A stretch of 32,000 bases of DNA from Candidatus Saccharimonadota bacterium (GCA_016699955.1 CP064993.1:810001-842000), one strand, 5' to 3'. Shown: positions 21,360 to 32,000, counted from the stretch's first letter. Program-made: numbers and translations. Notes: generated from the letters alone by a model not told the origin.

Positions 21360-21558
21360 ATAACCGAGGCATTCCGGTCCAGGGAAAGGGTTTGCTTTTG
21401 AGGGGCTGGGTTAGAACTAAGTCACAGGGGGGAAATGAAAGAACCGCCATTTCTGACGGTTCCGGGGATTACTTGGTAACGGCTGATTTTTTAAGGCGTT
21501 CTAGCACGCTATTCATGGAAGTTTTTAAAACGGTTTGCAGCTGAGGAGGAGCTACAAA

Positions 21559-22332
21559 CTATCCTTTTTTTACTTGTTTCTTAGATTTTAGGAAATCTGC
21601 AGCGCTGTCGATAAGAAAAAGGCTCACGTCGTCCCGCGTCTCCCCTGAGTCATGAAACGGTGTACTGACAATTCCGATTAGTATCATAATGTAGATCAAC
21701 ACAAAACTTATGATGCCTATGATGGCTAAGCTTCCGTAGAAAGGATCAACGTTAGTTAATATTAAAAGACCAATTACGAAAAAAACAATCGACTTCAGCA
21801 GAATACTGGCAGACGGAATGAACTTAATACGTTGAATGTAAGTAACTCGTTTACGATGACGTAACAATAGTAACTGTTGTTGCTTAAGTTTAACTATGAA
21901 ATTCGCAGGTACTCCGGCTTTTTCCATTTGTCCAAAATAAGGATTTAAGGCTCGAATTTTTGAGCTCATTCCTCTAGCTGCATTGCGTGTATCGTCTTCA
22001 AACTTGAACGCAACTTTTTGTAGTTGTGCCCGGAAACCCTCTAAGTCAAATTTTGGATATGATTTATGAATTTCCTCTGCGTCTGCGTACATATCTTCAA
22101 TATTAGCTGCAAATTCTGCTGGAATACGTTCGGATTCTTTGTAGTCTGCAATAGTCGCTGAAAGTAAAAAACCAATTACAAATGTAGCACTTGAAATAAC
22201 TCCATTGTGTAGCGAGCTTTGTTCAATTGGTTCCCAGCCAAAAGCATGAAAGCAGTATTTAACCCCAACAATCACAATCGCTGAAATTATTGATACAAAA
22301 AAGATTTTTAAATCTGTAAGTTTTTGAAACAT
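21559..22332 (-). CDS. Hypothetical membrane protein (two N-terminal and two C-terminal hydrophobic helices)
   Basis: 257-aa ORF, AT-rich. Its topology was read from hydrophobic stretches. Confidence 0.6.
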   Translation of the reverse strand: MFQKLTDLKIFFVSIISAIVIVGVKYCFHAFGWEPIEQSSLHNGVISSATFVIGFLLSATIADYKESERIPAEFAANIEDMYADAEEIHKSYPKFDLEGFRAQLQKVAFKFEDDTRNAARGMSSKIRALNPYFGQMEKAGVPANFIVKLKQQQLLLLRHRKRVTYIQRIKFIPSASILLKSIVFFVIGLLILTNVDPFYGSLAIIGIISFVLIYIMILIGIVSTPFHDSGETRDDVSLFLIDSAADFLKSKKQVKKG

Positions 22333-22583
22333 TTTATTCTTATAATTATACAGGCAAACTCATCACATTTTACTAAAGAATTATACAAATGCAGTTGAAG
22401 GCGGTGGAACTGGAGGAAAAGACCTGAGTAATCTATCAGCAGGTAGCATGGTAGTGGCTAAAGCCATCTTCATCTTATTCTAAAAGAATACCACATAAAT
22501 GATGCTGTATTTTCTTAACTGCACCTCACCGAATCAACTTCGGTTCCCAGCAGTCTGGTTCGCGTCCAGGGCTGGAAGTAAAT

Positions 22584-22607
22584 AAAAAAGCCTCACAAAT
22601 GTGAGGC
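22584..22607 (-). terminator. Intrinsic terminator after Fic cassette
   Basis: GCCTCAC-AAAT-GTGAGGC, followed on the minus strand by a T6 run. Confidence 0.7.
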
Positions 22608-22616
22608 AACTTTATT

Positions 22617-22646
22617 TGGCACGCAACAATATACGGAATTATAACC
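22617..22646 (-). repeat. 30-nt cassette-end box, copy 1 (GGTTATAATTCCGTATATTGTTGCGTGCCA)
   Basis: Aligns without gaps to the other eight boxes. Lies 63 nt after the Fic stop and is followed by a terminator. Confidence 0.6.
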
Positions 22647-22709
22647 GTTATTAATCTAGAGTTTGCTTGCTTTTAGGGTAAATTGCATTGCCGACAAACG
22701 TACTTAATA

Positions 22710-23261
22710 CTATTCCTTATAGTTGTCTGGCTCTTCGTAATAGTACGATTGTTCTATACCTTTCATGAATACTTCCCGATCATCGATTTTGTCGGTTAAT
22801 GCTGTGCGTAGTAGCTCACGAATCTCTAAATCATTCACAGGACTGCGCTCCATAGCGTTTAAGTAGTCGTTTTTATTGATTTTTTCCCAGTCAATACACT
22901 GTTTCAGATTTTTCTTGAATATCAAATCTAGCCAGATACGCGTACTACGTCCGTTGCCTTCCATGAAAGGATGCGCTATATTCATTTCTACGTATTTTTT
23001 AACAATCTCTTCAAAAGTCGTTTCTGGCATTTTATCTATTTCGGCAAGGCCACTAACCAAATAAACGGCGGATGCAAATGTAAAGCCACCTTTGCTAATG
23101 TGCTTGGAACGAATTTTCCCAGCAAAGTCGTATAGACCACCAAAAAGATACTCGTGAATTTGTCGTAAACCATTTATTGTGCCGACCTCAAAAGCCGACA
23201 AGTCCGAGCTACCAAAGAGTTCTACGGCCCGCTGTTTGCTTATTTCGTCAATGTTTGGCAT
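22710..23261 (-). CDS. Fic family protein, class III-like (C-terminal inhibitory helix)
   Basis: Fic motif [12 protein letters not shown]. About 183 aa from ATG 23261. C-terminal [10 protein letters not shown] carries an SxxxE inhibitory-type motif. Confidence 0.9.
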
Positions 23262-23267
23262 GACTAA

Positions 23268-23276
23268 ATTATAGCA
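23268..23276 (-). promoter_or_regulatory. Extended -10 TGCTATAAT, 6 nt before ATG 23261 (leaderless)
   Basis: Read on the minus strand: TTGTGCTATAAT-TTAGTC-ATG. Confidence 0.55.
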
Positions 23277-23500
23277 CAAAACGGCGGATTATTTATAAGA
23301 TCAACCCCTGTTAAAATGGCAACATCAAAGAAATTGAAACAAGTTATAGTCATTACTAAATCCAAGAAAATCTAGACAATAAAGTAGTGTTTACCCTATA
23401 ATACAGTCTGTAAAAGACGCATACGGGACTGAATCTGACCCAGAGGCGTCTTTTCTGATTAGTTGGAGTTGTGTTGATTTCATTTCCAGACCGCCTATAT

Positions 23501-23531
23501 AAAAAGTCAGAACCGAATTATCAGTTCTGAC
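23501..23531 (-). terminator. Intrinsic terminator after SDR cassette (GTCAGAAC hairpin family)
   Basis: GTCAGAAC-N10-GTTCTGAC with a T5 run on the minus strand. Confidence 0.7.
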
Positions 23532-23543
23532 TTTATCTTTTTT

Positions 23544-23573
23544 AGCTCGGCTCTGCGATACGTCTCTCGAACT
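23544..23573 (-). repeat. 30-nt cassette-end box, copy 2 (AGTTCGAGAGACGTATCGCAGAGCCGAGCT), diverged
   Basis: Lies 6 nt after the SDR stop, in the same position relative to a terminator as the other boxes. Confidence 0.45.
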
Positions 23574-23579
23574 TTTTTG

Positions 23580-24323
23580 CTACTGATTTAAATCGTTGTA
23601 GCGATGTTCGTATTCACCAGTAGCAACCGCATCAGTAAAATATTTCACTCGCTCTACTTGTATTTCATCTATTTCAGGATTGTTTTCAAGTAAATTTGTT
23701 ACTTCGGTAATGAAATCAGCAAGGGGCATAGCGTTGGGGTCGTTAGCTTGTTCTGGACTGATTAGTTCAGTTTGTACATAAGGCGGAATAAGCTCGATGA
23801 CTTGAATGCCACTATTTTTTAGCTGTGTACGAAGAGACTGCGTGTAAGAGTGTATTGCAGCTTTTGTTGCGCAGTACGATGGAAAGCTTGCACCTGGGAT
23901 AAATGCTAATCCCGAAGAAACAGTAACTATTACAGCGTCGTTGTTACCCTCAAGAATTGGAAGCAATTTAGAATTTAACTCCATCTGCCCGATTAAGTTA
24001 GTGGCGATTATGGACTTTGCAGTCTGTATATCATTGTCACCAATCTTTTCTGCTTTCATCATTCCGGCATTGAGTATCAGTACATTGAGATCAGGGTATT
24101 TTTCATATACTTGAGCGACTAGGGCATCTATTGATTCGCTAGTTGTAACATCGAGCTCTAAAGTCTCCATGCCCTCGTTAGCTTTAGCGACTTCCTCAAG
24201 TCTTGCCTTGTTTCGTCCCGCAATGATAACTTTATTACCTTTACGATGGAACATTTCGGCCAAACCTTTCCCAATTCCAGAGCCACCGCCAGTAATTAAG
24301 ATTGTATTTTTAAACATTTTCAT
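23580..24323 (-). CDS. Short-chain dehydrogenase/reductase (classical SDR)
   Basis: TGGGSGIG cofactor motif, NAG motif, catalytic YCATK. Confidence 0.9.
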   Translation of the reverse strand: MKMFKNTILITGGGSGIGKGLAEMFHRKGNKVIIAGRNKARLEEVAKANEGMETLELDVTTSESIDALVAQVYEKYPDLNVLILNAGMMKAEKIGDNDIQTAKSIIATNLIGQMELNSKLLPILEGNNDAVIVTVSSGLAFIPGASFPSYCATKAAIHSYTQSLRTQLKNSGIQVIELIPPYVQTELISPEQANDPNAMPLADFITEVTNLLENNPEIDEIQVERVKYFTDAVATGEYEHRYNDLNQ

Positions 24324-24329
24324 ACTTTT

Positions 24330-24338
24330 ATTTTAGCA
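24330..24338 (-). promoter_or_regulatory. Extended -10 TGCTAAAAT, 6 nt before ATG 24323 (leaderless)
   Basis: Minus strand reads TTGTGCTAAAAT-AAAAGT-ATG. It shares the TTGTGCTA prefix with the Fic promoter. Confidence 0.55.
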
Positions 24339-24481
24339 CAATCACCGATGGGCTAGATGCTCTTGTCTGTATATGGCGCACAACTAAAGACAGGTCGTGG
24401 GTACAGGTCTGTTCTTGGGGTACCTGGTTGCCATATAGGGAAATGGTTACTGACGAAACGCACCATCAGGGGTAATAAATC

Positions 24482-24503
24482 AAAAACCGTCCTTTCGGAC
24501 GGT
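24482..24503 (-). terminator. Intrinsic terminator inside long spacer module L1
   Basis: ACCGTCC-TTTC-GGACGGT with a T5 run on the minus strand. Confidence 0.6.
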
Positions 24504-24610
24504 TCTGATGGTTTTGGTCAGTTGTTAAAGCTGACATTCTTCTTGTCTGACCAAGGAGTTAATGTGGGAACAGGTCACGGAACCTGGTCACTACTTTTCA
24601 CTGCTTGGTT

Positions 24611-24640
24611 TGGCTCCTCGCAATAGAGGAAGTTATGACT
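24611..24640 (-). repeat. 30-nt cassette-end box, copy 3 (AGTCATAACTTCCTCTATTGCGAGGAGCCA)
   Basis: Lies 47 nt after the stop at 24688. Confidence 0.65.
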
Positions 24641-24687
24641 GTAATTAAGAGGGATTATTCTGGAGTACTATAAAGACACTTCGCAAC

Positions 24688-25066
24688 CTACGTTTCGAGA
24701 TATTGCAATGGAACCGCAGCATGCTGGTCTTCTGTAAACCGATGGCCATTATCAATTGATAAAGTTGGATCGATTCCTATCGCGTAGCCGGGGTTTCGCG
24801 ATATGAGATTTGCTGCTTCTGCCGCTACGCATATTTTAGTGTAAGCATCAAGTACTACTGCTCCTCCGCGCTTTTTTAGCAGTGCGTCCTTATAAGCGAT
24901 TTCCTTCCGTAATATGTCAAGCGGCTTTTTGATGTCAGGAAAGAGTATAAGGCTGACATAATCGCCAAAAGTATTCAAAAACGGATCCGAGTCTAAGGCC
25001 TTTCGCCTCGTTTGTGTATCCGCCCAAAGATCGGGTGCGCCGGGACCGCTGAAATATAGGTTTTGC
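24688..25066 (-). pseudogene. 3' part of a 175-codon cassette gene split by the IS at 25067-26174
   Basis: The frame is open up to the IS boundary. It joins in frame to 26175-26331 once the IS and one GGTTTTGC copy are removed. Confidence 0.7.
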
Positions 25067-26174
25067 GGCTTAAGACCAAAATCTGGTTGCTGCTAAAGCT
25101 TTAAAACAAGGCCAAAACAAATACGGACAGGCTCGCCTCATGTATTCTTGTAGTTGCAAAACTAAGTAAGGAAAAAACTAATGAGAGCTAAGCACTGTCC
25201 GTATTTCAATTGTACCAACGTTAAGAAAAATGGGGTGAGAAATAGCAAGCAAAGATACTACTGCTGTTCCTGCGAGGCGTCTTGGATTAACAAAGCTCGA
25301 CCGATTCGTAGCCTTAACAAACTGTGGGATCAATATGCATTTGATGGTCTGACGGTAGCAAAATTAGCTCGTAATTGCAGTAAAAGCAGAGGCTATATCC
25401 AGACCAGACTAAACGCCTATGTCCCTTTACCCATAACTCAAAAACCTCATACCGTAGCCGTCATCATGGATGTTACCTACTTTGGCAGCTGGGGCATTTT
25501 GGTTGTCATCGATCCATACGCGAACACAAGCTTAGGAGAGAACGTCGTATTGTACTACGCAGAGGTTGAAGGCACTGAAAAGACCCGTGACTACGTGATC
25601 GCAACAGATACGGTCGAGGCTATGGGCTACAGTATCATTGCTGCTACGATTGACGGCAGACGAGGAGTGCGGAACATGCTTGAATCCAAAGGCATACCCG
25701 TCCAGCATTGTCAGTTTCATCAGCTCATGACCATTACCCAATGTCTGACGAAGCGACCCAGACTGACTCAGAACATCGAGCTGCGAGCCATTGCTCTGAC
25801 ACTCAGTAGAACGGGCGAGATGGCGTTTGAAGAGGCTCTGGCCGGTTGGTACAGCAAACACGGCGAATGGCTCAAGGAACGCGATGCAGTCACGGGAAAG
25901 TTCTCGCATGAACGTACCAGACGAGCCTACTTTAGTTTGATTAGGAATCTACCCTATTTGTTCACCTTCCGGCATGATTATCTACAAGAATACACTCAGC
26001 AGACCGGCAAGCAAATCGCCAATACAACCAGCCCATTAGACGGCAGATTTGGAGTCTGGAAAGACAGACTCATACCCCACAGAGGGTGCTCAAAAAGGCG
26101 TACTTTTATATTGCTTTGTAGTTTCTTCTCTAGAACAACAGATTAGGGTAGCAACCGAAAAATGGTCTTAAGCC
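25067..26174 (+). mobile_element. IS element (1108 bp), zinc-ribbon DDE transposase, IS1/IS1595-like
   Basis: 12-bp perfect terminal inverted repeat GGCTTAAGACCA. An 8-bp direct repeat GGTTTTGC flanks it at 25059-25066 and 26175-26182. Confidence 0.85.
25181..26146 (+). CDS. Transposase with N-terminal zinc ribbon (IS1 InsA-like / IS1595-like)
   Basis: CPYFNC...NGVRNSKQRYYCCSCEASW zinc-ribbon pattern, followed by VIMDVTYF and ATIDGRRG acidic motifs. Confidence 0.8.
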   Translation: MRAKHCPYFNCTNVKKNGVRNSKQRYYCCSCEASWINKARPIRSLNKLWDQYAFDGLTVAKLARNCSKSRGYIQTRLNAYVPLPITQKPHTVAVIMDVTYFGSWGILVVIDPYANTSLGENVVLYYAEVEGTEKTRDYVIATDTVEAMGYSIIAATIDGRRGVRNMLESKGIPVQHCQFHQLMTITQCLTKRPRLTQNIELRAIALTLSRTGEMAFEEALAGWYSKHGEWLKERDAVTGKFSHERTRRAYFSLIRNLPYLFTFRHDYLQEYTQQTGKQIANTTSPLDGRFGVWKDRLIPHRGCSKRRTFILLCSFFSRTTD

Positions 26175-26331
26175 GGTTTTGCTGATAAATTACGGGATTG
26201 CCACGTGCCAGAGTTCTGTGCAGTTTCTCCGACAGGTACTCATAATAACCCGCTGGCATTGAGGCCGATGGCCTATGTACACCAGTCTCAAGATCATAAA
26301 CGCCATTCACATGCTTAACAACAGCCAACAT
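26175..26331 (-). pseudogene. 5' part (52 codons) of the cassette gene split by the IS
   Basis: MLAVVKH...GNPVIYQQN, then the reading runs into the IS end and stops after 10 IS-encoded codons. Confidence 0.7.
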
Positions 26332-26338
26332 ACATAAT

Positions 26339-26347
26339 AAAATACCA
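26339..26347 (-). promoter_or_regulatory. Extended -10-like TGGTATTTT, 7 nt before ATG 26331
   Basis: Overlaps the 3' arm of the preceding terminator hairpin (ATACCAC/GTGGTAT). Confidence 0.35.
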
Positions 26348-26370
26348 CATTAAGTGGTATTTGTAAATAT

Positions 26371-26547
26371 CTTGGCTCCGGGGACTGGGTCGCTACGCTC
26401 TTCCGCTCAATAGTGCTCGAAGCAAGCTTCTGCGCGCTATATCGCTACACCGAACTAGTGACCACGCTCACGTTGTTCGCTTGTCGCTAGGTCAAACTCA
26501 ATCTCGAGATCCAAATTAAAACCGCCTCATTCGAGACGGTCATAATT
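26371..26547 (-). repeat. Structured spacer module A
   Basis: The first 85 nt are identical to module C (28197-28281). On the minus strand it ends in CCCCGGAGCCAAG. Confidence 0.8.
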
Positions 26548-26577
26548 TGGCTCACAACGATAGAGGAAGTTATAACC
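26548..26577 (-). repeat. 30-nt cassette-end box, copy 4 (GGTTATAACTTCCTCTATCGTTGTGAGCCA)
   Basis: Lies 32 nt after the stop at 26610. Confidence 0.75.
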
Positions 26578-26609
26578 ACAATTAAGCAAGACTCATATGC
26601 ATAAAATTC

Positions 26610-27236
26610 TTAGTCGAACCAGTGCTTGTGCATCTCTGACATGAATTCCTTTGTAATCGGAAAACCAGATTTGTCACCAATAACAGAATCAATCCCGCAC
26701 TTGGGGCATAGCGCGCAGTCATTATCATCGACCCATTCTTCGATTTTGTTGGGTGTGAATATATCTCCACAATAGAAACAGCCACATTCTTTGCTGGCGA
26801 GAACCTCTTCCCAATGCCTGGCGGTGTGCGTATGGGCCTCACGAATGTCTTTAGGCATAGCGGATTTCGCAGTTTCTAGTTGTTGGATTAGCTCGTCAAA
26901 CTCTTCTTGTTCTTTTTGTGAAATAGGTTGATCGGTCAACGAGGGAGTTTCCTTGGGTAGGGGTTTGCGTGTGTGGGATGCCATATCCTGACTACATGCC
27001 CCAAATGTCCTAAAGTTCTTCTTTGCTTGATTTAAGGTAAGTCCGTGATTTGGGCCGTAACATGGTTCGTCTGGGTTCTTTTGATGATCATCGTCTATAC
27101 TGTCGTCTTCCCGGAAACACACAGGGCATATATCATACATGCCCTTATGAGCGGCATCTATGGTAAGAAAACCGCATACTTCACATGCGGCACGGTTCTT
27201 AATATTAGGAGCTTTGGCACGCTTGAACCAGTTCAT
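26610..27236 (-). CDS. Cysteine-rich fusion protein: N-terminal CPCC-type domain plus C-terminal CxxC...CxxC zinc-ribbon domain
   Basis: CEVCGF...YDICPVCFREDD...GPNHGLTLNQAKKNF at the N-terminus, and CGCFYCGDIF...EWVDDNDCALCPKCGIDSVIG at the C-terminus. Confidence 0.75.
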   Translation of the reverse strand: MNWFKRAKAPNIKNRAACEVCGFLTIDAAHKGMYDICPVCFREDDSIDDDHQKNPDEPCYGPNHGLTLNQAKKNFRTFGACSQDMASHTRKPLPKETPSLTDQPISQKEQEEFDELIQQLETAKSAMPKDIREAHTHTARHWEEVLASKECGCFYCGDIFTPNKIEEWVDDNDCALCPKCGIDSVIGDKSGFPITKEFMSEMHKHWFD

Positions 27237-27242
27237 AAATGT

Positions 27243-27251
27243 AGTATAACA
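27243..27251 (-). promoter_or_regulatory. Extended -10 TGTTATACT, 6 nt before ATG 27236 (leaderless)
   Basis: Minus strand reads CTGTTATACT-ACATTT-ATG. Confidence 0.5.
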
Positions 27252-27281
27252 GTTCTAACGTTGCAGGCTCAGCTTACCCCA

Positions 27282-27321
27282 AACCAAACTAACAGAGACT
27301 TTCGTCTCTGTTAGTTTGGTT
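27282..27321. terminator. 18-bp perfect hairpin (AACCAAACTAACAGAGAC / GTCTCTGTTAGTTTGGTT, loop TTTC)
   Basis: Exact reverse complement arms, located directly after module B on the minus strand. Confidence 0.6.
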
Positions 27322-27326
27322 CTAAC

Positions 27327-27492
27327 CTTGGCTCGGGGGACTGGGCAGCACACACTAATCTATGCGCCGAGTAAACTCGGGCATTAGTCTAATGACCGAA
27401 CCCAGCGGCCTGACTCCGCTTTGCGGAGTGGTCGCAGGTTAAAGCCAGTCTCAAAGCAAGAAAAAACGAGCCCAAAAGGACTCGTCTTTTCT
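27327..27492 (-). repeat. Structured spacer module B
   Basis: Its last ~63 nt are part of an 81-nt run (27430-27510) identical to 28309-28389; the run continues 18 nt into the adjacent box. On the minus strand the module ends in CCCCCGAGCCAAG. Confidence 0.8.
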
Positions 27493-27522
27493 TGGCTCAC
27501 AACGATAGAGCAAGTCATAACT
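27493..27522 (-). repeat. 30-nt cassette-end box, copy 5 (AGTTATGACTTGCTCTATCGTTGTGAGCCA)
   Basis: Lies 4 nt after the stop at 27527. Confidence 0.75.
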
Positions 27523-27526
27523 GCGA

Positions 27527-28135
27527 TTAAATTAGATTTTGCCCATTGATGCCCGAAAAGACTATATTAAAATAGTGATTTGTGTGCTGGACAAAACGCT
27601 CTTTGAATTCATTCCTTGATACGATTTCTTCGCTGTTCTTCGCCTTTATCCATTCAACTCCATCGACCTCTCCATCTGGAAAAGTGAAGGTCATATCATC
27701 TCTGTATTCAACGGTATAAACGAACCTTAATTCATCTTTGTGACTGTCTTCTGTTTTTCTCTGATAATGTTCAACCCCAGCAAAATAAAGATCGTCTGTG
27801 TTAATTGAAATACCTAATTCTTCTTTTGTTTCTCGTATTGCTGCTGCAACCTCATCTTCATTCAGGTCAATGTGTCCAGCTGCAGAAATATCTAGTAATC
27901 CTACTTTGTAGTCAACTTTTGGTGCAGCCTTTTGGAATAATAGGTATAGTTCATCATTTTCTTTTTTCCAAATCCAAATGTGAGCTGCTGCATGTGGTAT
28001 GCCACTAGAAAATGCACGTTCATGGCCTGTGCCTTTTTGTGGAACCTGCGTGCCATATTTAGTATAAATTTGCCAATCAATCATTCGTACATTATACCCC
28101 ACAAAAAACATGGGCATTTTATCGTTCGGTTTCAA
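27527..28135 (-). CDS. NUDIX hydrolase (start uncertain: TTG 28135, ATG 28117 or ATG 28111)
   Basis: Nudix box GHIDLNEDEVAAAIRETKEELGI. Confidence 0.8.
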   Translation of the reverse strand: MKPNDKMPMFFVGYNVRMIDWQIYTKYGTQVPQKGTGHERAFSSGIPHAAAHIWIWKKENDELYLLFQKAAPKVDYKVGLLDISAAGHIDLNEDEVAAAIRETKEELGISINTDDLYFAGVEHYQRKTEDSHKDELRFVYTVEYRDDMTFTFPDGEVDGVEWIKAKNSEEIVSRNEFKERFVQHTNHYFNIVFSGINGQNLI

Positions 28136-28151
28136 TTCTTGTCTGGGTATG

Positions 28152-28182
28152 AAAAAGTCAGAACCATTTTCACAGTTCTGAC
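28152..28182 (-). terminator. Intrinsic terminator (GTCAGAAC hairpin family)
   Basis: GTCAGAAC-N10-GTTCTGAC with a T5 run on the minus strand. Confidence 0.7.
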
Positions 28183-28196
28183 TTCATCTGTTCCAG

Positions 28197-28371
28197 CTTG
28201 GCTCCGGGGACTGGGTCGCTACGCTCTTCCGCTCAATAGTGCTCGAAGCAAGCTTCTGCGCGCTATATCGCTACACCGAACCAGCGACCTACGCTCACTT
28301 TGTTCGCTGGTCGCAGGTTAAAGCCAGTCTCAAAGCAAGAAAAAACGAGCCCAAAAGGACTCGTCTTTTCT
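28197..28371 (-). repeat. Structured spacer module C (mosaic of A-left and B-right)
   Basis: 28197-28281 is identical to 26371-26455, and 28309-28389 is identical to 27430-27510. Confidence 0.85.
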
Positions 28372-28401
28372 TGGCTCACAACGATAGAGGACGTTATAAC
28401 C
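28372..28401 (-). repeat. 30-nt cassette-end box, copy 6 (GGTTATAACGTCCTCTATCGTTGTGAGCCA)
   Basis: Lies 35 nt after the stop at 28437. Confidence 0.75.
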
Positions 28402-28436
28402 GCCATTATGCTGGATTTAACGGTGTCCAGCGTTGC

Positions 28437-28655
28437 TTAAGCTGGTTTTAACGAAATTATATTATCCATGCCCATGCTTGATACTTTCATTTGAGATAAA
28501 TTATTCACCAACTCCATGCATTCTTTAGAATGTTTTGAATCTTCATTGATAATATAGCTTGCTTGATAGAATTTATCACCACTTCCACTTACCTGATTTA
28601 ATTTCACTTTCAGGGATCTCCTTACTTTTGGGCAGTGTTCCTGTAGCCCATTCAA
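28437..28655 (-). CDS. Hypothetical small ORF (72 aa), overlaps the next ORF out of frame
   Basis: ORF only. It may be the frameshifted continuation of 28576-28821. Confidence 0.3.
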   Translation of the reverse strand: MNGLQEHCPKVRRSLKVKLNQVSGSGDKFYQASYIINEDSKHSKECMELVNNLSQMKVSSMGMDNIISLKPA

Positions 28656-28821
28656 ATTCTCTAATTACCTGCGCTGCAACTTCTTCATCCCAATCTTTTT
28701 TCGAGCGACCCTGGACTTCCTTATTCATAACTTCATGAAACTGCTTATCAGGACTATTATGTGGTCCACGATTTGCTGAGAGAATTTCTTTTAGCCGTTT
28801 ATGAAATCGATCTTTATTCAT
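28576..28821 (-). CDS. Hypothetical small protein (81 aa), translationally coupled to the hydrolase gene
   Basis: Its start overlaps the hydrolase stop (ATGAATAA, 8-nt overlap). Confidence 0.45.
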   Translation of the reverse strand: MNKDRFHKRLKEILSANRGPHNSPDKQFHEVMNKEVQGRSKKDWDEEVAAQVIREFEWATGTLPKSKEIPESEIKSGKWKW

Positions 28822-29392
28822 TCAAAATGTGTAGCAATTTCTCTTTCAAGTCTTCAAACTCTGTGTACCCAGCTCTAGCGTTAAAGTGCCCTGCATTAGG
28901 TATAAACGACAGCTCAACTCCTAAGTGCTTTGCTAACTCTTTGCCATTGTCTAGTCCCACATAAGGGTCATCATCGGACTGGTATACTATGAAGTCTTTG
29001 GCTTTCTGCTTAATATTGTCCCACTCAAAATCAAAGCCACTAAAGGCACTGTCGCGATCATAATTGAGAATTGGCCTAACACCTATTGGTGCGCCGACAA
29101 AGAATGCTGCCTTAATAGGGTGTTTTAACTTTTCTAAAACACGAAGTGTAAAGATTCCGCCTAAGCTATGTCCAATAATAATTGTATTTTCCGTAATCTT
29201 ATCTCCGTAGTCTTTCAAAACATCAACCCACTCAGAAATCTTTGCAGGAACAACGGGTGGCGACGGAAACTGCGGAACAGTAACTTCGTATCCTTTTGCT
29301 TCAAGCTCGCCTTTTAGCCAAGGAAACCAGTTTTCCTGCGGGTGGCCTTCTGTGCCATGAAAAATAAAAATGTTTGGTTTATCTTCAGTCAT
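28814..29392 (-). CDS. Alpha/beta serine hydrolase, YdeN/RBBP9-like
   Basis: 192 aa with nucleophile elbow IIGHSLGG, a late DDD...GHF pattern, and typical family size. Confidence 0.85.
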   Translation of the reverse strand: MTEDKPNIFIFHGTEGHPQENWFPWLKGELEAKGYEVTVPQFPSPPVVPAKISEWVDVLKDYGDKITENTIIIGHSLGGIFTLRVLEKLKHPIKAAFFVGAPIGVRPILNYDRDSAFSGFDFEWDNIKQKAKDFIVYQSDDDPYVGLDNGKELAKHLGVELSFIPNAGHFNARAGYTEFEDLKEKLLHILNE

Positions 29393-29398
29393 TACATA

Positions 29399-29407
29399 AT
29401 AATAACA
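29399..29407 (-). promoter_or_regulatory. Extended -10 TGTTATTAT, 6 nt before ATG 29392 (leaderless)
   Basis: Minus strand reads CTGTTATTAT-TATGTA-ATG. Confidence 0.5.
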
Positions 29408-29495
29408 GATACGAACACATTGCTGGTTTCAAATCTAGGGTGCCTATATAAAAATCAGAACTAAATTAACAGCTCTGACTTTGTCTACTATGGTC

Positions 29496-29525
29496 TGGCT
29501 CACACTAGCAGACGCATTGCGAACC
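29496..29525 (-). repeat. 30-nt cassette-end box, copy 7 (GGTTCGCAATGCGTCTGCTAGTGTGAGCCA)
   Basis: Lies 48 nt after the stop at 29574. A degenerate GTCAGAAC-family hairpin follows at 29455-29478. Confidence 0.65.
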
Positions 29526-29573
29526 GCCTGTCTGGATTTTGATAAAAGTAATTTGAATGAAATAAAGGCAATC

Positions 29574-29750
29574 TTAGCGACGGCTGCTTAGTTTATTCAC
29601 TAACTTATTGTATTGCCCTTTTGTCAAAAAGACCCTGTGGATGTTTGGCTTACTTGTATTTCCAGTAAGTGTCGCTTTTGTCGTTATGCCCCAGTCTACA
29701 ATCGTCATGTTAGTTAGGTCTACTTCAACGAAGTAATACTCTTTTTTCAT
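29574..29750 (-). CDS. Hypothetical small protein (58 aa), below the ORF-track cutoff
   Basis: ATG at 29750 with SD GGAGG 9 nt upstream. A cassette-end box and hairpin follow it. Confidence 0.5.
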   Translation of the reverse strand: MKKEYYFVEVDLTNMTIVDWGITTKATLTGNTSKPNIHRVFLTKGQYNKLVNKLSSRR

Positions 29751-29812
29751 GCTGTTCAGCCTCCATCTATATCTATTCTACACCCAGCTTTGGTAAATCT
29801 ATACCGCAAAGC

Positions 29813-29837
29813 AAAAACACCTTCCTTTCGGAAGGTG
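29813..29837 (-). terminator. Intrinsic terminator directly after the tRNA-3'-end-like sequence
   Basis: CACCTTCC-TTTC-GGAAGGTG with a T5 run on the minus strand. Confidence 0.7.
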
Positions 29838-29845
29838 CTTATACT

Positions 29846-29870
29846 TGGCTCCGGGGAAAGGATTCGAACC
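29846..29870 (-). other. tRNA 3'-end-like sequence (T-loop, acceptor 3' strand, discriminator, CCA); no complete tRNA
   Basis: Minus strand reads GGTTCGAATCCTTTCCCCGGAGCCA. The upstream sequence does not form the matching T-stem, acceptor stem or other arms. Confidence 0.6.
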
Positions 29871-29961
29871 AATAATAATCACCGCCTAATTTTAGGTTCG
29901 TTTTAGCTTATCTTACCCCTGTTATATGTCAACTTTTATTGTGGTTTTTAATGTCTGAATG

Positions 29962-29970
29962 TGATATCAT
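29962..29970 (+). promoter_or_regulatory. Extended -10 TGATATCAT, 6 nt before ATG 29977 (leaderless)
   Basis: TGATATCAT-TAGAAC-ATG. Confidence 0.5.
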
Positions 29971-29976
29971 TAGAAC

Positions 29977-30153
29977 ATGAATAAGCCACAGCTAAAACGC
30001 ACCAAAAACGTTAATCGAGCTGTTGCCAATGAACGACTCGAGGGCTTGAAGGTATCTGAAGATTCCCGAAAAATTGCTGGCGAATATATTTCTGGTAAGG
30101 CTTCTGCAAAGCAAGCCGCCTCTAAAATACGAGCACGATACGGGGTGCTGTAA
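29977..30153 (+). CDS. VbhA-like antitoxin of a class I Fic toxin (58 aa), below the ORF-track cutoff
   Basis: RAVANERLEGLKVSE resembles the VbhA inhibitory helix (consensus (S/T)xxxE(G/N); here NERLEG). Its stop overlaps the Fic start (TAATG). Confidence 0.75.
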   Translation: MNKPQLKRTKNVNRAVANERLEGLKVSEDSRKIAGEYISGKASAKQAASKIRARYGVL

Positions 30154-30752
30154 TGTCCGATTTTGTCGATCCCTACCTGGATGACAAGACCGGCATCTTA
30201 CGCAATCTACTTAATGCCGGGACGAATGATGAGTTAAAAGATCTAGAGGCTCAAATAGTTTTTGCCAACGAACTAGAACTCGAAGAAATCGGAATAAAAC
30301 GAACTAGTGACCTATCTGAATTACTGGCAATTCACAAACAGCTGTTCGGTAACGTGTACGATTGGGCTGGTGATATACGTACTGTCGATATTAAGAAAAA
30401 TAGCGATAATGCCGAGTATTTCTTACCTGTTAGCAAGATATTAGGTGCGTGCGAGTATGTTTTTGCTGAGCTTACCAAGGAAAACTATTTGAAAAATTTA
30501 GATAAAGAAAAATTCGTAGAACGTTTGGCCTATTTTTATGACCAGCTAAACTATGTTCACCCGTTTCGTGAAGGCAACGGTCGTACGCAACGAGTCTTTT
30601 GGACAAGAATTGCTCACGGTGCTGGATATGAGATAGGTTGGGACGAAGTAGTTGGCAATGAAAACGACGAAGCATCACGCATCGCCGCAGAAAAGATGGA
30701 TTTATCTCCACTTACTGCGATGTTTGCAAAGATTATTAGCTCACTACAATAA
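30153..30752 (+). CDS. Fic family toxin (class I, VbhT/FicT-like)
   Basis: Fic motif HPFREGNGRTQR. Translationally coupled to the upstream small antitoxin ORF. Confidence 0.9.
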   Translation: MSDFVDPYLDDKTGILRNLLNAGTNDELKDLEAQIVFANELELEEIGIKRTSDLSELLAIHKQLFGNVYDWAGDIRTVDIKKNSDNAEYFLPVSKILGACEYVFAELTKENYLKNLDKEKFVERLAYFYDQLNYVHPFREGNGRTQRVFWTRIAHGAGYEIGWDEVVGNENDEASRIAAEKMDLSPLTAMFAKIISSLQ

Positions 30753-30994
30753 ACTCTTGTGCCAGCAGTAAAACTTTTCGGTCAGGGAACTCGGTCTGGT
30801 TTCTGTCTGTCCAGCTTCCATAGGGGCGACTGGTCAAGGTTCGAACCAGAATAACAGAGGTAAATACGAAGAACCACCATTTCTGGTGGTTCTAACGTTT
30901 ATCGGGTTCGAACTGCTTTCGAACCTTCCGCAAGGCTAATCAGAGAAGTAAAACCTTGTCATGGAACCCGGTCTGGGTATTTCTCTGCTTGGTC

Positions 30995-31024
30995 TGGCTC
31001 CAGCTAGCGGATGAGTTGTGAACT
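30995..31024 (-). repeat. 30-nt cassette-end box, copy 8 (AGTTCACAACTCATCCGCTAGCTGGAGCCA)
   Basis: Lies 81 nt after the stop at 31106. Long module L2 follows. Confidence 0.6.
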
Positions 31025-31105
31025 GTTAGTATCTATTTTGATAAACACAAGCTACTAGTAATTGGGGACGTTTTAACGAGCGAAAGTTATTACACATGCT
31101 AACTG

Positions 31106-31753
31106 CTATTTTTGCACATCACGCTCATGATCGAGCTGTGTCTGTGTTGGCCTCTGCATTAAAGGAGCCATCTTATCATGAGGTATATATATACTATTAA
31201 GTGTTTTCCGTAAATCCACATAGCTAATAATATTGATGGGTATTCCGAGTAAATTTCCAATCTCAGTTGCTTCGGCATCAAGCGGAACGCTCGCCTTATA
31301 GAAAGGAAGTCCGAATCTATTGATATTCCACTCCACCATATACCTATCTGCTATTTCAATCTGTTCGTCAAAAACTACATTCAGGTATAGGGTACACCAC
31401 CTATCACCAAAAAAAATATGCTCGTTTCCATCGAAACCCTTCAAGTAGTCCAGACTGCGTACGTCTGTACGGTCAAGCCGCCTAATCCATCGCTTGTCGC
31501 CAATCATTCGCTTGTATTCAATAGTGATGGTGCCGTCCGATGCCATTGTGACTGTACGAGTCTCGACATACTTCACCATGAATATACCGAAGACGGTTAA
31601 TAATAAGCCAACTACAATAAAAGGCAGTTCTTGGGTATAGAGGCCAATCGCTGCAAGCACAACACCAACGCTACCGGCACTTAGACCATAAACAAATTGT
31701 AGGGTGTTTTTTTCGATAATTTGGAGTGTGCTGCCATTTTTTTGGAAAATCAT
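31106..31753 (-). CDS. Hypothetical membrane protein (two N-terminal helices plus soluble domain)
   Basis: 215-aa ORF with hydrophobic segments at about residues 20-60. Confidence 0.6.
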   Translation of the reverse strand: MIFQKNGSTLQIIEKNTLQFVYGLSAGSVGVVLAAIGLYTQELPFIVVGLLLTVFGIFMVKYVETRTVTMASDGTITIEYKRMIGDKRWIRRLDRTDVRSLDYLKGFDGNEHIFFGDRWCTLYLNVVFDEQIEIADRYMVEWNINRFGLPFYKASVPLDAEATEIGNLLGIPINIISYVDLRKTLNSIYIPHDKMAPLMQRPTQTQLDHERDVQK

Positions 31754-31759
31754 ACGGTT

Positions 31760-31768
31760 ATCTTAGCA
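31760..31768 (-). promoter_or_regulatory. Extended -10 TGCTAAGAT, 6 nt before ATG 31753 (leaderless)
   Basis: Minus strand reads GTGCTAAGAT-AACCGT-ATG. Confidence 0.5.
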
Positions 31769-31844
31769 CGGCTATACTAAGATATACCATCCGTGCATCA
31801 CTCCGCGCTGCGGTAGCCGCTTTTAGCGTAACCTTCAAAACAAA

Positions 31845-31881
31845 GAAAAAAGCCTAGGCAGTGAATGCCTTGGCTTTTTTC
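31845..31881. terminator. Bidirectional intrinsic terminator
   Basis: AGCCTAGGCA-GTGAA-TGCCTTGGCT (one mismatch), flanked by A6 and T6 runs. Confidence 0.65.
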
Positions 31882-31883
31882 TT

Positions 31884-31913
31884 TGGCTCCGCTTACAGGT
31901 CACGAATTTTTAA
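31884..31913 (-). repeat. 30-nt cassette-end box, copy 9 (TTAAAAATTCGTGACCTGTAAGCGGAGCCA), diverged
   Basis: Ends in GGAGCCA, is followed by a terminator, and sits after an ORF that runs off the window end. Confidence 0.45.
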
Positions 31914-32000
31914 CAGGGTAAAACGCTACAAATGAGTTACTACATGTGGTTTTTGGCGAACCATTCATGTTCTATAGCACTTCTTGGAGAGTCAACAACC

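Follow-up and report, generated by a model that had tools for sequence, protein, structure and literature searches.

What are the short boxes that recur behind small genes in one part of a Candidatus Saccharimonadota chromosome, and what assembled the region that carries them? The window, i.e. the whole 32,000-nt stretch analysed here (CP064993.1:810001-842000), had been described in a first-pass annotation as holding nine minus-strand copies of a gap-free 30-nt box, each 2 to 81 nt past a stop codon and in most cases followed by a hairpin, read either as (a) recombination or boundary sites of an undescribed cassette-accretion system derived from a tRNA 3' end, or as (b) tRNA-like RNA elements.

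Sites and cassettes of the window

A minus-strand site is present at all nine positions, 4 to 81 nt past the stop codon as measured here, and each is followed by a hairpin, usually with a T-run; the one given as 23544 is a GAGCCG junction lying 4 nt away, at 23548. The single 30-nt family did not hold: the nine boxes belong to several left-arm families, and the conserved unit spans ~47 nt plus GAGCCA. There are good boxA copies at 26548, 27493, 28372 and 24611, a decayed boxA at 22617, a second family (boxB) at 29496 and 30995, and a tRNA-like 'psi' arm at 31884. The count of nine also proved too low, since four additional sites belong to the same system, namely a 25-nt fragment of the tRNA-Asn 3' end (29846) and three ~135-nt 'e' elements (28199, 27329 and 26373), as well as a probable decayed one near 21475.

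The boxes are genuine and recur far more often than chance would give. The window has 26 copies of GAGCCA where shuffled sequences have 14.4 +/- 3.9, and 13 of the 26 copies lie on the minus strand between 22.7 and 31.9 kb. A box HMM trained on 205 foreign copies (nhmmer) recovered the sites at 26548, 28372, 27493 and 24611 with E values of 1e-9 to 1e-14, and more weakly those at 29496 (5e-5) and 22617 (6e-3), with nothing significant in the window beyond these six array sites. Over the core genes at 1-21 kb it had no match at all, so that over these 21 kb the box does not behave as a generic motif behind core genes, the case that the first-pass annotation had set against its own reading. The higher AT content noted for the array is borne out (GC 0.35-0.46, against 0.45-0.55).

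We consider it likely that, from ~21.47 kb to past the window edge at 32 kb, small integrated elements ("cassettes") follow one another in tandem, and that large serine recombinases (LSRs) targeting the 3' end of tRNA-Asn in Saccharibacteria assembled this array. Neither an LSR nor a full tRNA-Asn lies within the window, where the head of the array is not seen, and exact-match look-ups together with one exact-match metagenome scan gave no sequence extending the contig past it. Throughout, a site consists of a left arm, GAGCCA and a right arm. Along the minus strand the features are:

31884..31913, minus: Site 1, psi left arm (AAAAATTCGTGACCTGTAAGCG plus GAGCCA; left-arm cluster L2, 35 copies), mimicking the tRNA-Asn 3' end in B-type register (motif start -25); plus strand WLRLQVTNF and stop, a tail shared by the full-length LSRs P0172 and P0193
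31106..31753, minus: cassette gene, 215 aa (ORF); a family search with the product gave no match
30995..31045, minus: Site 2, decayed boxB, P-type left arm of LSR tail family 2; plus strand WLQLADEL and stop; 73% identical to the 29496 copy (repeat family D9), motif at -30
30753..30994, minus: right arm R2 (GACCAAGCAGAG...), long non-coding leader, hairpin 30870-30893 (repeat families D5, D6, D11); cluster of 23 copies across loci
29977..30752, plus: opposite-strand cargo, a 58-aa ORF, then a 199-aa Fic/Doc protein (Pfam Fic, E 1.3e-15), read as a toxin-antitoxin pair
29846..29870, minus: Site 3, 25-nt copy of the tRNA-Asn 3' end (GGTTCGAATCCTTTCCCCGGAGCCA; compared with full tRNA-Asn genes in L115 and L079), then right arm R1
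29815..29845, minus: right arm R1 (AGTATAAGCAC hairpin with T-run), a class also found 3' of unoccupied tRNA-Asn genes and closing many arrays; together, Site 3 and R1 look like an unoccupied attB
29574..29750, minus: cassette gene, 58 aa, with a homologue of 95% identity in the Saccharibacteria MAG locus L080, where the left arm is the same and the right neighbour different
29496..29588, minus: Site 4, boxB; plus strand WLTLADALRTACLDFDKSNLNEIKAILATAA and stop; this tail family ends the full-length LSRs P0171, P0173, P0176 and P0180
29425..29495, minus: right arm R0, hairpin AGTCAGAGC...GTTCTGA with T-run, then a TTGAAAC leader (repeat family D3; cluster of 91 copies)
28437..29392, minus: cassette cargo, Ser_hydrolase (YdeN-like, 192 aa; PF06821, E 1.2e-23) and two small overlapping ORFs
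28372..28437, minus: Site 5, boxA; plus strand WLTTIEDVITAIMLDLTVSSVA and stop; nhmmer E 9.8e-13
28199..28371, minus: Site 6, mini-cassette of a terminator hairpin (R9) and e-element e1, a structured ~139-nt unit whose 3' end is the tRNA-Asn 3' strand CCAGTCCCCGGAGCCA (CM R1 135 bits; covariation)
28128..28198, minus: right arm R0 before the NUDIX gene
27527..28135, minus: cassette gene, NUDIX hydrolase (Pfam, E 3e-13), its stop codon within the conserved box region
27493..27552, minus: Site 7, boxA; plus strand WLTTIEQVITAIKLDFAH and stop; nhmmer E 4.3e-12
27329..27492, minus: Site 8, hairpin (R9) and e-element e2, a variant with a different insert (CM R1 38 bits, E 3e-7; fold z-score -3.4)
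27240..27328, minus: right arm R3 (AGGTTAGAACC...CAGAG hairpin) before the CPCC gene; cluster of 18 copies
26610..27236, minus: cassette gene, Cys_rich_CPCC protein (Pfam, E 2.3e-22)
26548..26605, minus: Site 9, boxA; plus strand WLTTIEEVITTIKQDSYA and stop; nhmmer E 7.4e-14
26373..26547, minus: Site 10, hairpin and e-element e3 (family D4; CM 128.6 bits), 98% identical to e1 over 93 nt
24688..26372, minus: cassette of right arm R16 and a gene interrupted by an insertion sequence (ORFs)
25181-26146, plus: IS256-family Zn-variant transposase inside the split cassette gene (NCBIfam NF048019, E 2e-58)
24611..24668, minus: Site 11, boxA; plus strand WLLAIEEVMTVIKRDYSGVL and stop; nhmmer E 1.5e-9
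24324..24610, minus: right arm R2 (AACCAAGCAGTG...), long leader, hairpin 24483-24506 (repeat families D5, D11)
23580..24323, minus: cassette gene, short-chain dehydrogenase (Pfam adh_short, E 1.9e-44)
23548..23573, minus: Site 12, decayed psi-like left arm (AGTTCGAGAGACGTATCGCA plus GAGCCG), placed by register and by aligning the following R0 arm with other R0 copies
23477..23547, minus: right arm R0 before the Fic gene (family D3)
22710..23279, minus: cassette gene, Fic, 74% identical to a boxA-flanked gene in locus L061
22617..22678, minus: Site 13, decayed boxA (GTGCCA); plus strand WHATIYGIITVINLEFACF and stop; nhmmer E 5.8e-3
21559..22332, minus: last cassette gene, 257-aa membrane protein, 74% identical to one in locus L078
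21440..21490, minus: decayed tRNA/e-like arm (AGTAATCCCCGGAACC) near 21475, then a hairpin of R1-like family (hairpin families D5, D6); probably the last site and end of the array, assigned by eye only

The box as the coding tail of a large serine recombinase

The box corresponds, in antisense, to the final ~20 codons of an LSR gene and serves at the same time as its attachment site. Read on the plus strand, the best boxes give W-L-T-T-I-E-E-V-I-T-x-I-K-x-D and a stop, the C-terminal tail of LSRs, the W-L codons being the reverse complement of GAGCCA; the boxA tail is WLTTIEEVITxIKxDL and that of boxB WLxLADxLRTA..., each closed by a stop. In most of 141 box copies the opposite-strand frame stops 18-22 codons past the W, and in L027, L098 and L060 it stays open for ~500-540 codons upstream, as long ORFs with Resolvase, Recombinase and Zn_ribbon_recom domains. 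Among the six frames it has the best synonymous to non-synonymous ratio and the fewest stops. The boxA tail is common to three LSRs that are only 27-30% identical to each other, and an intact LSR stands beside boxA at only 3 of 212 sites.

Most LSR homologues end instead in WLRGLDSNQRP, which is antisense tRNA-Asn (63 of the 120 from one search and 86 of the 120 from a second), while four carry a boxA, four a boxB and five a psi tail; hence, the gene extends across attP, and integration gives it another tail. In L121-L126 the LSR gene shares ~42 nt at its 3' end with tRNA-Asn, in L128-L131 and L137 the two adjoin, and complete elements, from tRNA-Asn to the tail-bearing site at the far end, measure 6.9-11.3 kb. 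A free attP form exists as well: L138 and L139 represent a single 8.67-kb circle opened at different points (99.99% identity, terminal repeat of 30 nt) with an intact LSR, whose tail at attP matches the boxB of the window. In L141 a boxA belonging to the upstream neighbour has become fused to the LSR, whose own tail lies 8.5 kb downstream, which indicates that new insertions enter on the tRNA side. The box is thus the antisense 3' end of an LSR gene spanning its own attP, and not a derivative of a tRNA 3' end as had been proposed; the T-loop-like start seen in it is a genuine likeness, probably reflecting one recombinase-binding motif, set 5 bp farther outward in the box relative to its place in the tRNA.

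Arrays across Saccharibacteria and the origin of the mosaic

More than 120 stretches contain this box, and almost all of them come from Saccharibacteria MAGs. By sequence content, the window is assigned to this group solely through the box and through its cassette homologues in such MAGs. We counted 329 sites in 124 locus-strands, on a single strand in all but 4 loci and with a median spacing of 745 bp; tRNA-Asn stands first in 36 of 39 arrays. Left arms are LSR tails (boxA or boxB), tRNA-Asn 3' ends or tRNA-like copies, right arms fall into a few terminator-plus-leader families, and the GAGCCA core corresponds to A72, the discriminator G73 and the CCA of tRNA-Asn. Left- and right-arm families combine independently (chi-square p = 0.24) and switch exactly after GAGCCA, which places the exchange at this core. 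Proposal (a) stands in substance, given this arm exchange, the tRNA-Asn heading the arrays and a cassette found elsewhere with different neighbours.

Concerning register, P-type left arms (boxA, boxB and a third tail family, tail3) differ from B-type ones (tRNA-Asn and psi copies). Of 212 box arms, 167 have the start of a shared RGTY motif at -30; in most of the tRNA arms (35 of 39) and psi arms (23 of 35) it begins at -25. This agrees with what is published for LSRs, in which the position of the zinc-ribbon-domain motif differs by 5 bp from attP to attB (PMC3783163).

Could the arrays be the decayed remains of full-size LSR elements, integrated serially at tRNA-Asn, whose recombinase was later deleted and whose cassettes never moved singly? 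LSR remnants are indeed present: among 330 right arms, six consist of coding sequence for an LSR C terminus, in some cases broken by in-frame stops, L137 has a 690-bp remnant between tRNA-Asn and a tail, and the window sites at 22617, 23548 and 30995 are decayed. Nevertheless, we regard this origin as unlikely, because random deletion would not yield a few cross-species right-arm families starting exactly at GAGCCA (R0 alone has 91 copies). Apart from the six remnant arms, no similarity of right arms to LSR 3' ends was detectable; the layout of the units (terminator, leader, one gene, box) is uniform, with a median length of 745 bp, and a second genome holds the 58-aa cassette, 95% identical, next to a different neighbour.

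Another possibility, which we hold to be improbable, is that LSRs made the sites while homologous recombination between 50-90-nt boxes and leaders, perhaps on DNA supplied by natural transformation, produced the arm mosaic and spread the cassettes. With ~53 nt for boxA and ~80 nt for R0, the repeats have the length and the similarity that such recombination needs, and no circular single-gene cassette was seen. The exchange points, however, fall on the 6-nt core rather than being scattered over the repeats, and arms as unlike as tRNA-Asn, psi and boxA are joined to one and the same right arm at an identical base. Such recombination could still contribute to the shuffling.

An RNA-level role of the box in the cassette mRNAs, whether as a motif tied to the terminator or, as in proposal (b), as a tRNA-like 3'-UTR element for processing or stability, is very hard to maintain, even though the box lies in the 3' UTR just ahead of a terminator hairpin and one copy folds better than shuffles (z = -2.3). 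Its copies vary with a period of 3, in ways that are synonymous when read on the opposite strand, where the stop codon keeps a fixed distance, and the box is the tail of intact LSR ORFs. Single-copy folds are otherwise unremarkable, inspection of the sequences at 24611, 22617 and 30995 finds the proposed hairpin not kept, a search of Rfam with the box gave no match, and none occurs in the 21 kb of core genes.

Proposed mechanism and relation to known systems

In the LSR-built array that we favour, the LSR gene runs across attP on the opposite strand. Integration joins the LSR body to antisense tRNA-Asn, giving the tail WLRGLDSNQRP and stop, and leaves the former tail at the far end of the element as a box; the P-type site on the circle would pair with a B-type site in the chromosome. 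Right arms, as terminator-plus-promoter leaders, would have little weight in the choice of partner, so each insertion at tRNA-Asn would regenerate a usable target and push older cassettes away, in the order tRNA-Asn, newest ... box, older ... box, native flank. Most units are LSR-less and hold one gene, apparently with a promoter and a terminator of its own; they are presumably mobilised in trans by the LSRs of autonomous elements of ~7-11 kb, which carry cargo and a Rep-like gene as well. The assignment of a given LSR to a given arm, the precise crossover dinucleotide and any role of the tail switch we infer. Against this reading stand the rarity of intact LSRs beside boxA, the right arms, whose lack of detectable likeness to LSR 3' ends makes it hard to see how they would be bound by an LSR dimer, and the fact that neither circular single-gene cassettes nor an empty/occupied pair among close strains came to light.

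Our verdict is that the system is an LSR-based variant of tRNA-targeting integrative elements, with LSR-less cassettes; the enzyme family being known, it is not the undescribed system first suggested. A canonical integron or CALIN, with attC sites of a tyrosine integron integrase, shares the gene-site-gene-site layout of co-oriented, short, unrelated genes including a toxin-antitoxin pair, but is very improbable, since the array is anchored on tRNA-Asn and not attI, the associated enzyme belongs to the serine recombinases and has the site inside its own gene, the box, unlike attC, keeps its primary sequence across the more than 120 stretches, which come from different MAGs, and is coding when read on the opposite strand, and the cassettes appear to carry leaders and terminators of their own. 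For canonical LSRs both half-sites are required, and attL is not a target; the rule proposed here, in which the left arm would decide, is therefore a departure from the textbook behaviour of the family.

The box and the large serine recombinase gene

A degenerate pattern of the box (the minus-strand repeat ending in GAGCCA) was scanned against one genome per species, and the box turned up in at least 120 stretches, nearly all of them, among the matches listed, from Candidatus Saccharibacteria or Saccharimonadales MAGs. Its 18-mer had no matches in viral contigs. Among the fetched loci and contigs (L numbers), box arrays are also present on contigs binned elsewhere, several of them short: L001 and L017 (Pedobacter MAGs), L077 (Clostridiaceae MAG), L074 (Microgenomates), L087 (Doudnabacteria), L050 and L103. 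The box contigs outside Saccharibacteria are probably mis-binned Saccharibacteria DNA; for those in other Patescibacteria bins, transfer is possible.

The conserved part measures ca. 47 nt plus GAGCCA, longer than the 30 nt initially described, and conservation ends abruptly after GAGCCA, where a handful of recurring sequences follow. The variable positions of the box fall on every third base. Read on the opposite strand, it yields W L T T I E E V I T x I K x D L, with synonymous codons for Leu (TTA/CTA/TTG/CTG) and Asp (GAT/GAC), and this frame meets a stop 18-22 codons past the W in most of 141 copies, while in three loci it stays open for ca. 500-540 codons upstream. Over 202 distinct copies the opposite-strand frame leads in synonymous changes and has the smallest number of stops (457:1018, 17 stops); the forward frame sharing its third positions has a synonymous score nearly as good, and coding on the opposite strand is settled by the intact open reading frames of large serine recombinases (LSRs). 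The ORF containing the box in L098, for example, carries the Resolvase (PF00239), Recombinase (PF07508) and zinc-ribbon (PF13408) domains that identify it as an LSR. Three LSRs with the common boxA tail (boxA and boxB being two LSR-tail families) are only 27-30% identical to each other, hence the tail must be held by more than ordinary protein descent. In the window, the plus-strand tails read as follows.

Plus-strand tails of the window boxes
26548, plus strand: WLTTIEEVITTIKQDSYA, then stop
27493, plus strand: WLTTIEQVITAIKLDFAH, then stop
28372, plus strand: WLTTIEDVITAIMLDLTVSSVA, then stop
24611, plus strand: WLLAIEEVMTVIKRDYSGVL, then stop
29496, plus strand: WLTLADALRTACLDFDK..., then stop

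Forward-strand coding as a C-terminal extension or read-through, suggested by the in-frame stops of the CPCC gene and a small ORF, was dropped in view of the intact LSR ORFs on the opposite strand. A protein search with the tail only returned five short ORFs and was uninformative.

The second key to the box is tRNA-Asn(GTT), which ARAGORN places next to boxes in many loci. The order in L115 is tRNA-Asn...GGAGCCA, hairpin, gene, box ...GTGAGCCA and then AGCATAAGCA; in L079 an e-element, a structured unit of about 135 nt with a tRNA-Asn 3' end, sits between tRNA-Asn and cassette. GAGCCA comprises A72, the discriminator G73 and the CCA of tRNA-Asn, and the W-L codons TGG CTC are its reverse complement. 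Two protein searches found 870 and 798 LSR homologues, whose source names include Chloroflexota, Dehalococcoidia and other Patescibacteria. Tails such as WLRGLDSNQRPSG, which are antisense tRNA with DSN as the T-loop, end 63 of the best 120 homologues of the L098 LSR, and antisense-tRNA tails occur in 86 of the best 120 homologues of the L060 LSR. As to the recombinases next to a full tRNA that the first-pass annotation had advised looking for, the 3' end of the LSR gene overlaps tRNA-Asn by ca. 42 nt in the fetched contigs L121-L126, LSR genes border directly on tRNA-Asn in L128-L131 and L137, and in a relative with 49% identity the overlap is with tRNA-His (L134:103-1658). The overlap with tRNA-Asn together with the antisense-tRNA tails indicates that the LSR gene spans attP: integration at the tRNA CCA end swaps the last ca. 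20 LSR codons for antisense tRNA.

Among the LSR homologue proteins, P0001-P0245 represent a clade including Chloroflexota, Dehalococcoidia and Nomurabacteria names whose called C-termini are antisense tRNA (WL..DSN.., WG..SNP..). With such tails across a broad LSR clade, tRNA 3'-end targeting by serine integrases looks widespread. Gene callers report these chimeric tails.

Integrated and free elements, and the sites of the window

Full elements have tRNA-Asn at one end and, at the other, an LSR-tail left arm of the tail3 family, WLPLH(D/H)SI..LS.

Full integrated elements
L121:490-11495: full element
L124:203-11483: full element
L132:117-7041: full element, followed by a AGCATAAGCAC flank

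The order with its hybrid sites is tRNA-Asn, LSR, ..., tail, flank in all three. Full elements encode an HTH regulator, a SpoVG-like protein, a Rep-like protein (weak Phage_CRI match) and the LSR, with cargo such as metal-resistance genes. Within the L060 clade (best 120 homologues), full-length LSR tails belong to boxA in four cases, to the boxB family of the window in four and to the tRNA-like psi arm in five.

The free form is also found. L138 (8699 nt) and L139 (8665 nt), from two samples, are circularly permuted versions of a single 8.67-kb molecule, with a 30-nt terminal repeat and 99.99% identity. It carries an intact LSR with a boxB-like tail, its attP reading ...ATTCGCAATGTGTCTACTAGAGGGAGCCA, the counterpart of which in the window is GGTTCGCAATGCGTCTGCTAGTGTGAGCCA at 29496. 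This circle is the free attP form, and its tail identifies the window boxes as the element-side left arms of LSR att sites. Its genes (LSR, a Rep-like protein of 371 aa, SpoVG-like, an FtsK/SpoIIIE translocase and a MerR/HTH_17 protein) form a set that recalls actinomycete integrative conjugative elements.

In the window itself, ORF and Pfam annotation of 21.4-32 kb bears out the earlier description of short, unrelated genes packed mostly on the minus strand: a membrane protein, Fic, a short-chain dehydrogenase, an IS-disrupted ORF, CPCC, a NUDIX hydrolase, a Ser_hydrolase with two small ORFs, a 58-aa ORF and a 215-aa ORF, a Fic/Doc pair being the sole plus-strand exception among the genes listed. 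These ORFs were rightly called AT-richer, with a GC of 0.35-0.46 in the array vs 0.45-0.55 in the first 21 kb. The window holds 26 copies of GAGCCA vs 14.4 +/- 3.9 in shuffles, and 13 of the 26 fall within 22.7-31.9 kb on the minus strand. The first-pass annotation counted nine boxes of one family; inspection of 60 nt on each side gives 13 sites of several types, four of which stand as good boxA copies, and the box placed at 23544 is a decayed arm whose junction lies at 23548.

Sites of the window array
26548, 27493, 28372 and 24611, minus strand: good boxA copies
22617, minus strand: decayed copy of the box as first reported
29496 and 30995, minus strand: second box type (boxB)
31884, minus strand: tRNA-like (psi) arm
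23548, minus strand: decayed arm, true junction
29846-29815, minus strand: 25-nt tRNA-Asn 3' fragment plus R1 hairpin (R0-R16 being right-arm families), mid-array
28199-28337, 27329-27458 and 26373-26511, minus strand: three e-elements of ca. 135 nt, ending CCAGTCCCCGGAGCCA at 28199, 27329 and 26373

Judged by its sequence, the fragment at 29846-29815 looks like an intact, unoccupied attB copy inside the array. Hairpins with T-runs lie downstream of most window sites, as had been noticed, and the reported lack of an integrase agrees with the ORF and Pfam search, which found neither an LSR gene nor an IntI-type tyrosine recombinase in the window. ARAGORN found no tRNA or tmRNA there, complete tRNA-Asn included, and Rfam gave no match in the window at the gathering threshold, the hits at an E-value threshold being limited to sub-threshold hairpins in the e region. 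Metagenome contigs scanned with an exact 40-mer gave no match to the window, leaving the array head unseen. The layout is the same as in other arrays, and 11 of its sites were classified in the clustering described below. The 58-aa cassette recurs with 95% identity in L080, with the same boxB and another right neighbour, and for the Fic and membrane-protein cassettes homologues with 74% identity occur in other MAGs. The box and these cassette homologues point to Saccharibacteria as the source of the window.

Several further features of the window deserve mention. Two IS701-family transposase ORFs, at 1523-2509 (minus strand) and 19917-20903 (plus strand), are inverted, have identical Pfam scores and flank a 17-kb core block; directly after the second, at the array border, lies a 147-aa NmrA-like C-terminal ORF (20916-21359). 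The inverted copies and the truncated ORF suggest that a gene was interrupted here and that the IS copies may have mediated an inversion next to the array. Another cassette gene is split into ORFs 24688-24978 and 26143-26331, the insert being an IS256-family "variant Zn-binding type" transposase at 25181-26146 (plus strand; NCBIfam E 2e-58, no Pfam match). In the core block lie genes for adenylosuccinate lyase (9-1421), adenylosuccinate synthetase (9085-10158) and a dihydroorotate dehydrogenase-like protein (12281-13573), nucleotide-metabolism genes that are notable for a lineage usually called strongly reduced.

Arm families and probable growth of the arrays

Each site consists of a left arm, GAGCCA and a right arm, and all GAGCCA sites of the fetched loci and the window were clustered by arm.

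Arm families of the clustered sites
Left arm, boxA (boxB included): 212 copies
Left arm, full tRNA-Asn: 39 copies
Left arm, psi (GTYCGTGACCTGTAAGCG): 35 copies
Left arm, e-type: 9 copies
Right arm R0, start AGCCnnAATAGATnAAGTCAGAAC, hairpin, T-run, TTGAAAC: 91 copies
Right arm R1, AGCATAAGCAC hairpin: 40 copies
Right arm R2, start GACCAAGCAG: 23 copies
Right arm R3, start AGGTTAGAACC: 18 copies
Other right arms: several smaller families

Left and right families pair independently (chi-square p = 0.24), and the arms invariably change at the base that follows GAGCCA. The 329 sites are spread over 124 locus-strands, with both strands used in only four loci, at a median spacing of 745 bp (interquartile range 530-1273), and 36 of 39 arrays begin with tRNA-Asn. 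GAGCCA is the only repeat common to all sites; copies of the tRNA 3' end (psi, e and the 25-nt fragment) are present as well. The right arms form many unrelated families which, by eye, have no motif in common and none that mirrors the left-arm motif. A candidate origin of right arms as decayed LSR 3' ends, to which R0 is faintly alike by eye, was rejected, an HMM of 212 LSR C-termini matching none of R0-R16.

The left arms come in two registers. Counted from the last base of GAGCCA, 167 of 212 box arms have an RGTY(C/A)... motif with its first base at -30 (by eye also boxB and two of three tail3 arms, L124 and L121); in tRNA-Asn arms (35 of 39) and psi arms (23 of 35) its first base is at -25. 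The motif, common to box and tRNA-Asn arms, upholds the early remark on a T-loop-like start of the box. In attB sites of serine integrases, the zinc-ribbon-domain motif is the attP one placed 5 bp closer to the crossover (PMC3783163). On the strength of the same 5-bp difference, the box arms may be read as P-type and the tRNA-like arms as B-type half-sites, RGTY being the putative zinc-ribbon-domain binding motif of the left arms.

The e-element is a tRNA-Asn 3' half with a 60-75-nt insert in place of the T-loop. A covariance model built from 15 copies (examples elsewhere are L079:4739-4865 and L068:4196-4343) recovers 33 copies in 100 sources, each directly after a terminator hairpin and most ending in the local tRNA-Asn 3' strand, a few with decayed ends. 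Its central stem is strongly supported: 85% of cells are paired vs 62% in shuffles and 29-43% when slid, and 81 cells are changed on both sides vs 27.5 in shuffles. A terminal helix closing the element, found in 19 of 33 copies vs 137 of 330 shuffles, was not significant and was discarded. Possible roles of the e-element are that of a portable attB, of a single-strand origin used by the Rep-like protein, or of a small RNA whose end resembles a tRNA.

From the anatomy of the sites, the integrated and free forms and the arm shuffling seen in these loci, we infer how an array could grow. A circle bearing a P-type site would recombine with a B-type site of the chromosome, in the main tRNA-Asn, and the right arm would swap partners without deciding the reaction. 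As the product beside the tRNA would again be tRNA plus some right arm, the next element could enter at the same place, and older units would shift away from tRNA-Asn, ending in box and native flank. The psi and e units would offer extra B-type landing sites inside arrays. Use of "attL-like" sites as targets is not textbook LSR behaviour, and here the model departs from it. Two loci fit this growth: in L141 the LSR is fused to the boxA of its upstream neighbour, which would be the newer element, with its own boxB-like tail 8.5 kb downstream, and the L098 LSR carries boxA, though its clade elsewhere has tail3 at the far end. Most units consist of terminator, leader, one gene and box; being too small for a recombinase gene, they would depend on LSRs in trans. 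No cassette circle was seen.

Among other explanations, homologous recombination between repeats may add to the shuffling, and leaves the sharp junctions unexplained. A graveyard holding only decayed full-size elements would account for the LSR remnants found in 6 of 330 right arms and in L137; it cannot explain the conserved right-arm families, which start exactly at the core. The evidence speaks against a canonical integron, given a recombinase of the serine type, an anchor that is tRNA-Asn and a box which is conserved in sequence across at least 120 stretches from different MAGs and evolves as opposite-strand coding sequence. An RNA role of the box, put forward in the first-pass annotation, is contradicted by the coding signal on the other strand. 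Folds of single boxes and e-elements gave z from -3.4 to +0.7, a hairpin of two boxes is lost in others, and the RNA reading of the box was dropped.

Going beyond serial insertion at tRNA-Asn, we tentatively put forward a broader proposal, which we hold to be somewhat improbable in its entirety. It would see in the arrays a Saccharibacteria-wide, integron-like LSR platform in which promoter-bearing single-gene cassettes are inserted serially at the tRNA-Asn CCA end; one half-site (P-type box or B-type tRNA arm) would set the partner, so that the target is regenerated each time, the exchange of LSR tails between free and integrated forms would act as a built-in state sensor, the covarying e-element would be a portable landing pad or a new non-coding RNA, and the wider antisense-tRNA LSR clade would behave likewise in Chloroflexota and other Patescibacteria.

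Significance and comparison with known systems

Saccharibacteria are ultra-small, mostly episymbiotic bacteria, for which we know of few recognised routes of gene gain. The tRNA-Asn-anchored cassette array, with at least 120 stretches, would serve as a main store of accessory genes for them, such cargo in the window comprising Fic/Doc toxins, a NUDIX hydrolase, other hydrolases and membrane proteins. The LSR system of the arrays adds tRNA targets to those of serine integrases and provides a natural case of an integrase gene that spans attP and has its tail changed on integration, and the arrays suggest a site grammar whereby a single half-site determines the reaction. The LSRs, with boxA or boxB and the tRNA-Asn 3' end as their site pairs, are candidate site-specific genetic tools for Patescibacteria. 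The box is also a simple marker of the limits of accessory DNA in MAGs, and flags LSR genes whose called C-termini are antisense tRNA.

No description of this system was found in the literature covered on serine recombinases, cassettes or tRNA-Asn in Saccharibacteria or Patescibacteria; that coverage is incomplete, and an earlier description is possible. Integrons have the IntI tyrosine recombinase, an attI anchor and cassettes each with an attC, an imperfect palindrome (R''-L''...L'-R') conserved in structure and little in sequence. The likeness lies in the short, mostly co-oriented, unrelated single-gene cassettes, each with a terminal recombination site, in the fixed anchor with the newest cassette nearest and in the toxin-antitoxin cargo; the arrays differ in their serine recombinase, in having tRNA-Asn instead of attI, in sites that are sequence-conserved and coding rather than folded attC hairpins, and in cassettes that appear to bring their own promoters and terminators. 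The CIMEs of streptococcal ICEs and SCCmec islands also contain recombinase-less, att-flanked tandem units which depend on a recombinase-encoding element, and SCC elements use LSRs (CcrAB) with direct repeats at a host gene 3' end; their targets are fda and rlmH, and the units are much larger and have no integrase-tail box. Islander-type tRNA islands resemble the arrays in the intact tRNA at one end, the 3'-part copies and the tandem arrangement, with a tyrosine-family integrase instead of a serine one.

The serine integrases of A118/LI, Bxb1 and phiC31 share the Resolvase, Recombinase and zinc-ribbon set and short sites, as well as a motif whose distance from the crossover is 5 bp greater for the element site than for the host site (PMC3783163), and integrated and free circular forms are both seen here. 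Serine integrases were not known to target tRNA genes, according to the Islander paper (PMC4383910). The present system differs from them in its target, a tRNA gene 3' end, in an integrase gene that spans attP and changes its tail on integration, in right half-sites that appear interchangeable and in long arrays of recombinase-less units. In Myxococcus phage Mx8 IntP and SSV-type archaeal integrases the site lies inside the integrase ORF and tRNA integration alters or splits the integrase (PMC4383910, PMC7253208), a likeness in both site position and tRNA target; those are tyrosine recombinases, whereas here the enzyme is of the serine type, the exchange is limited to the last ca. 20 codons and, as in L141, a full tail can be regained from a neighbouring box.

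Closest in architecture are the tycheposons of Prochlorococcus, tRNA-targeting elements with a small integration module, a replication module and cargo, whose serial integrations push older elements into the island, where decayed remnants stay (bioRxiv 10.1101/2020.12.28.424599). The ca. 7-11-kb Saccharibacteria elements with LSR, Rep-like gene and cargo are similar, the comparison being one of architecture alone. Nearly all tycheposon-type elements (910 of 937) have tyrosine integrases, partial tRNAs serve as their attachment repeats, and arrays of ca. 0.7-kb single-gene units with integrase-tail boxes are not described for them (bioRxiv 10.1101/2020.12.28.424599). What is known already, then, is the enzyme family and the piling up in tandem of tRNA-targeting integrative elements.
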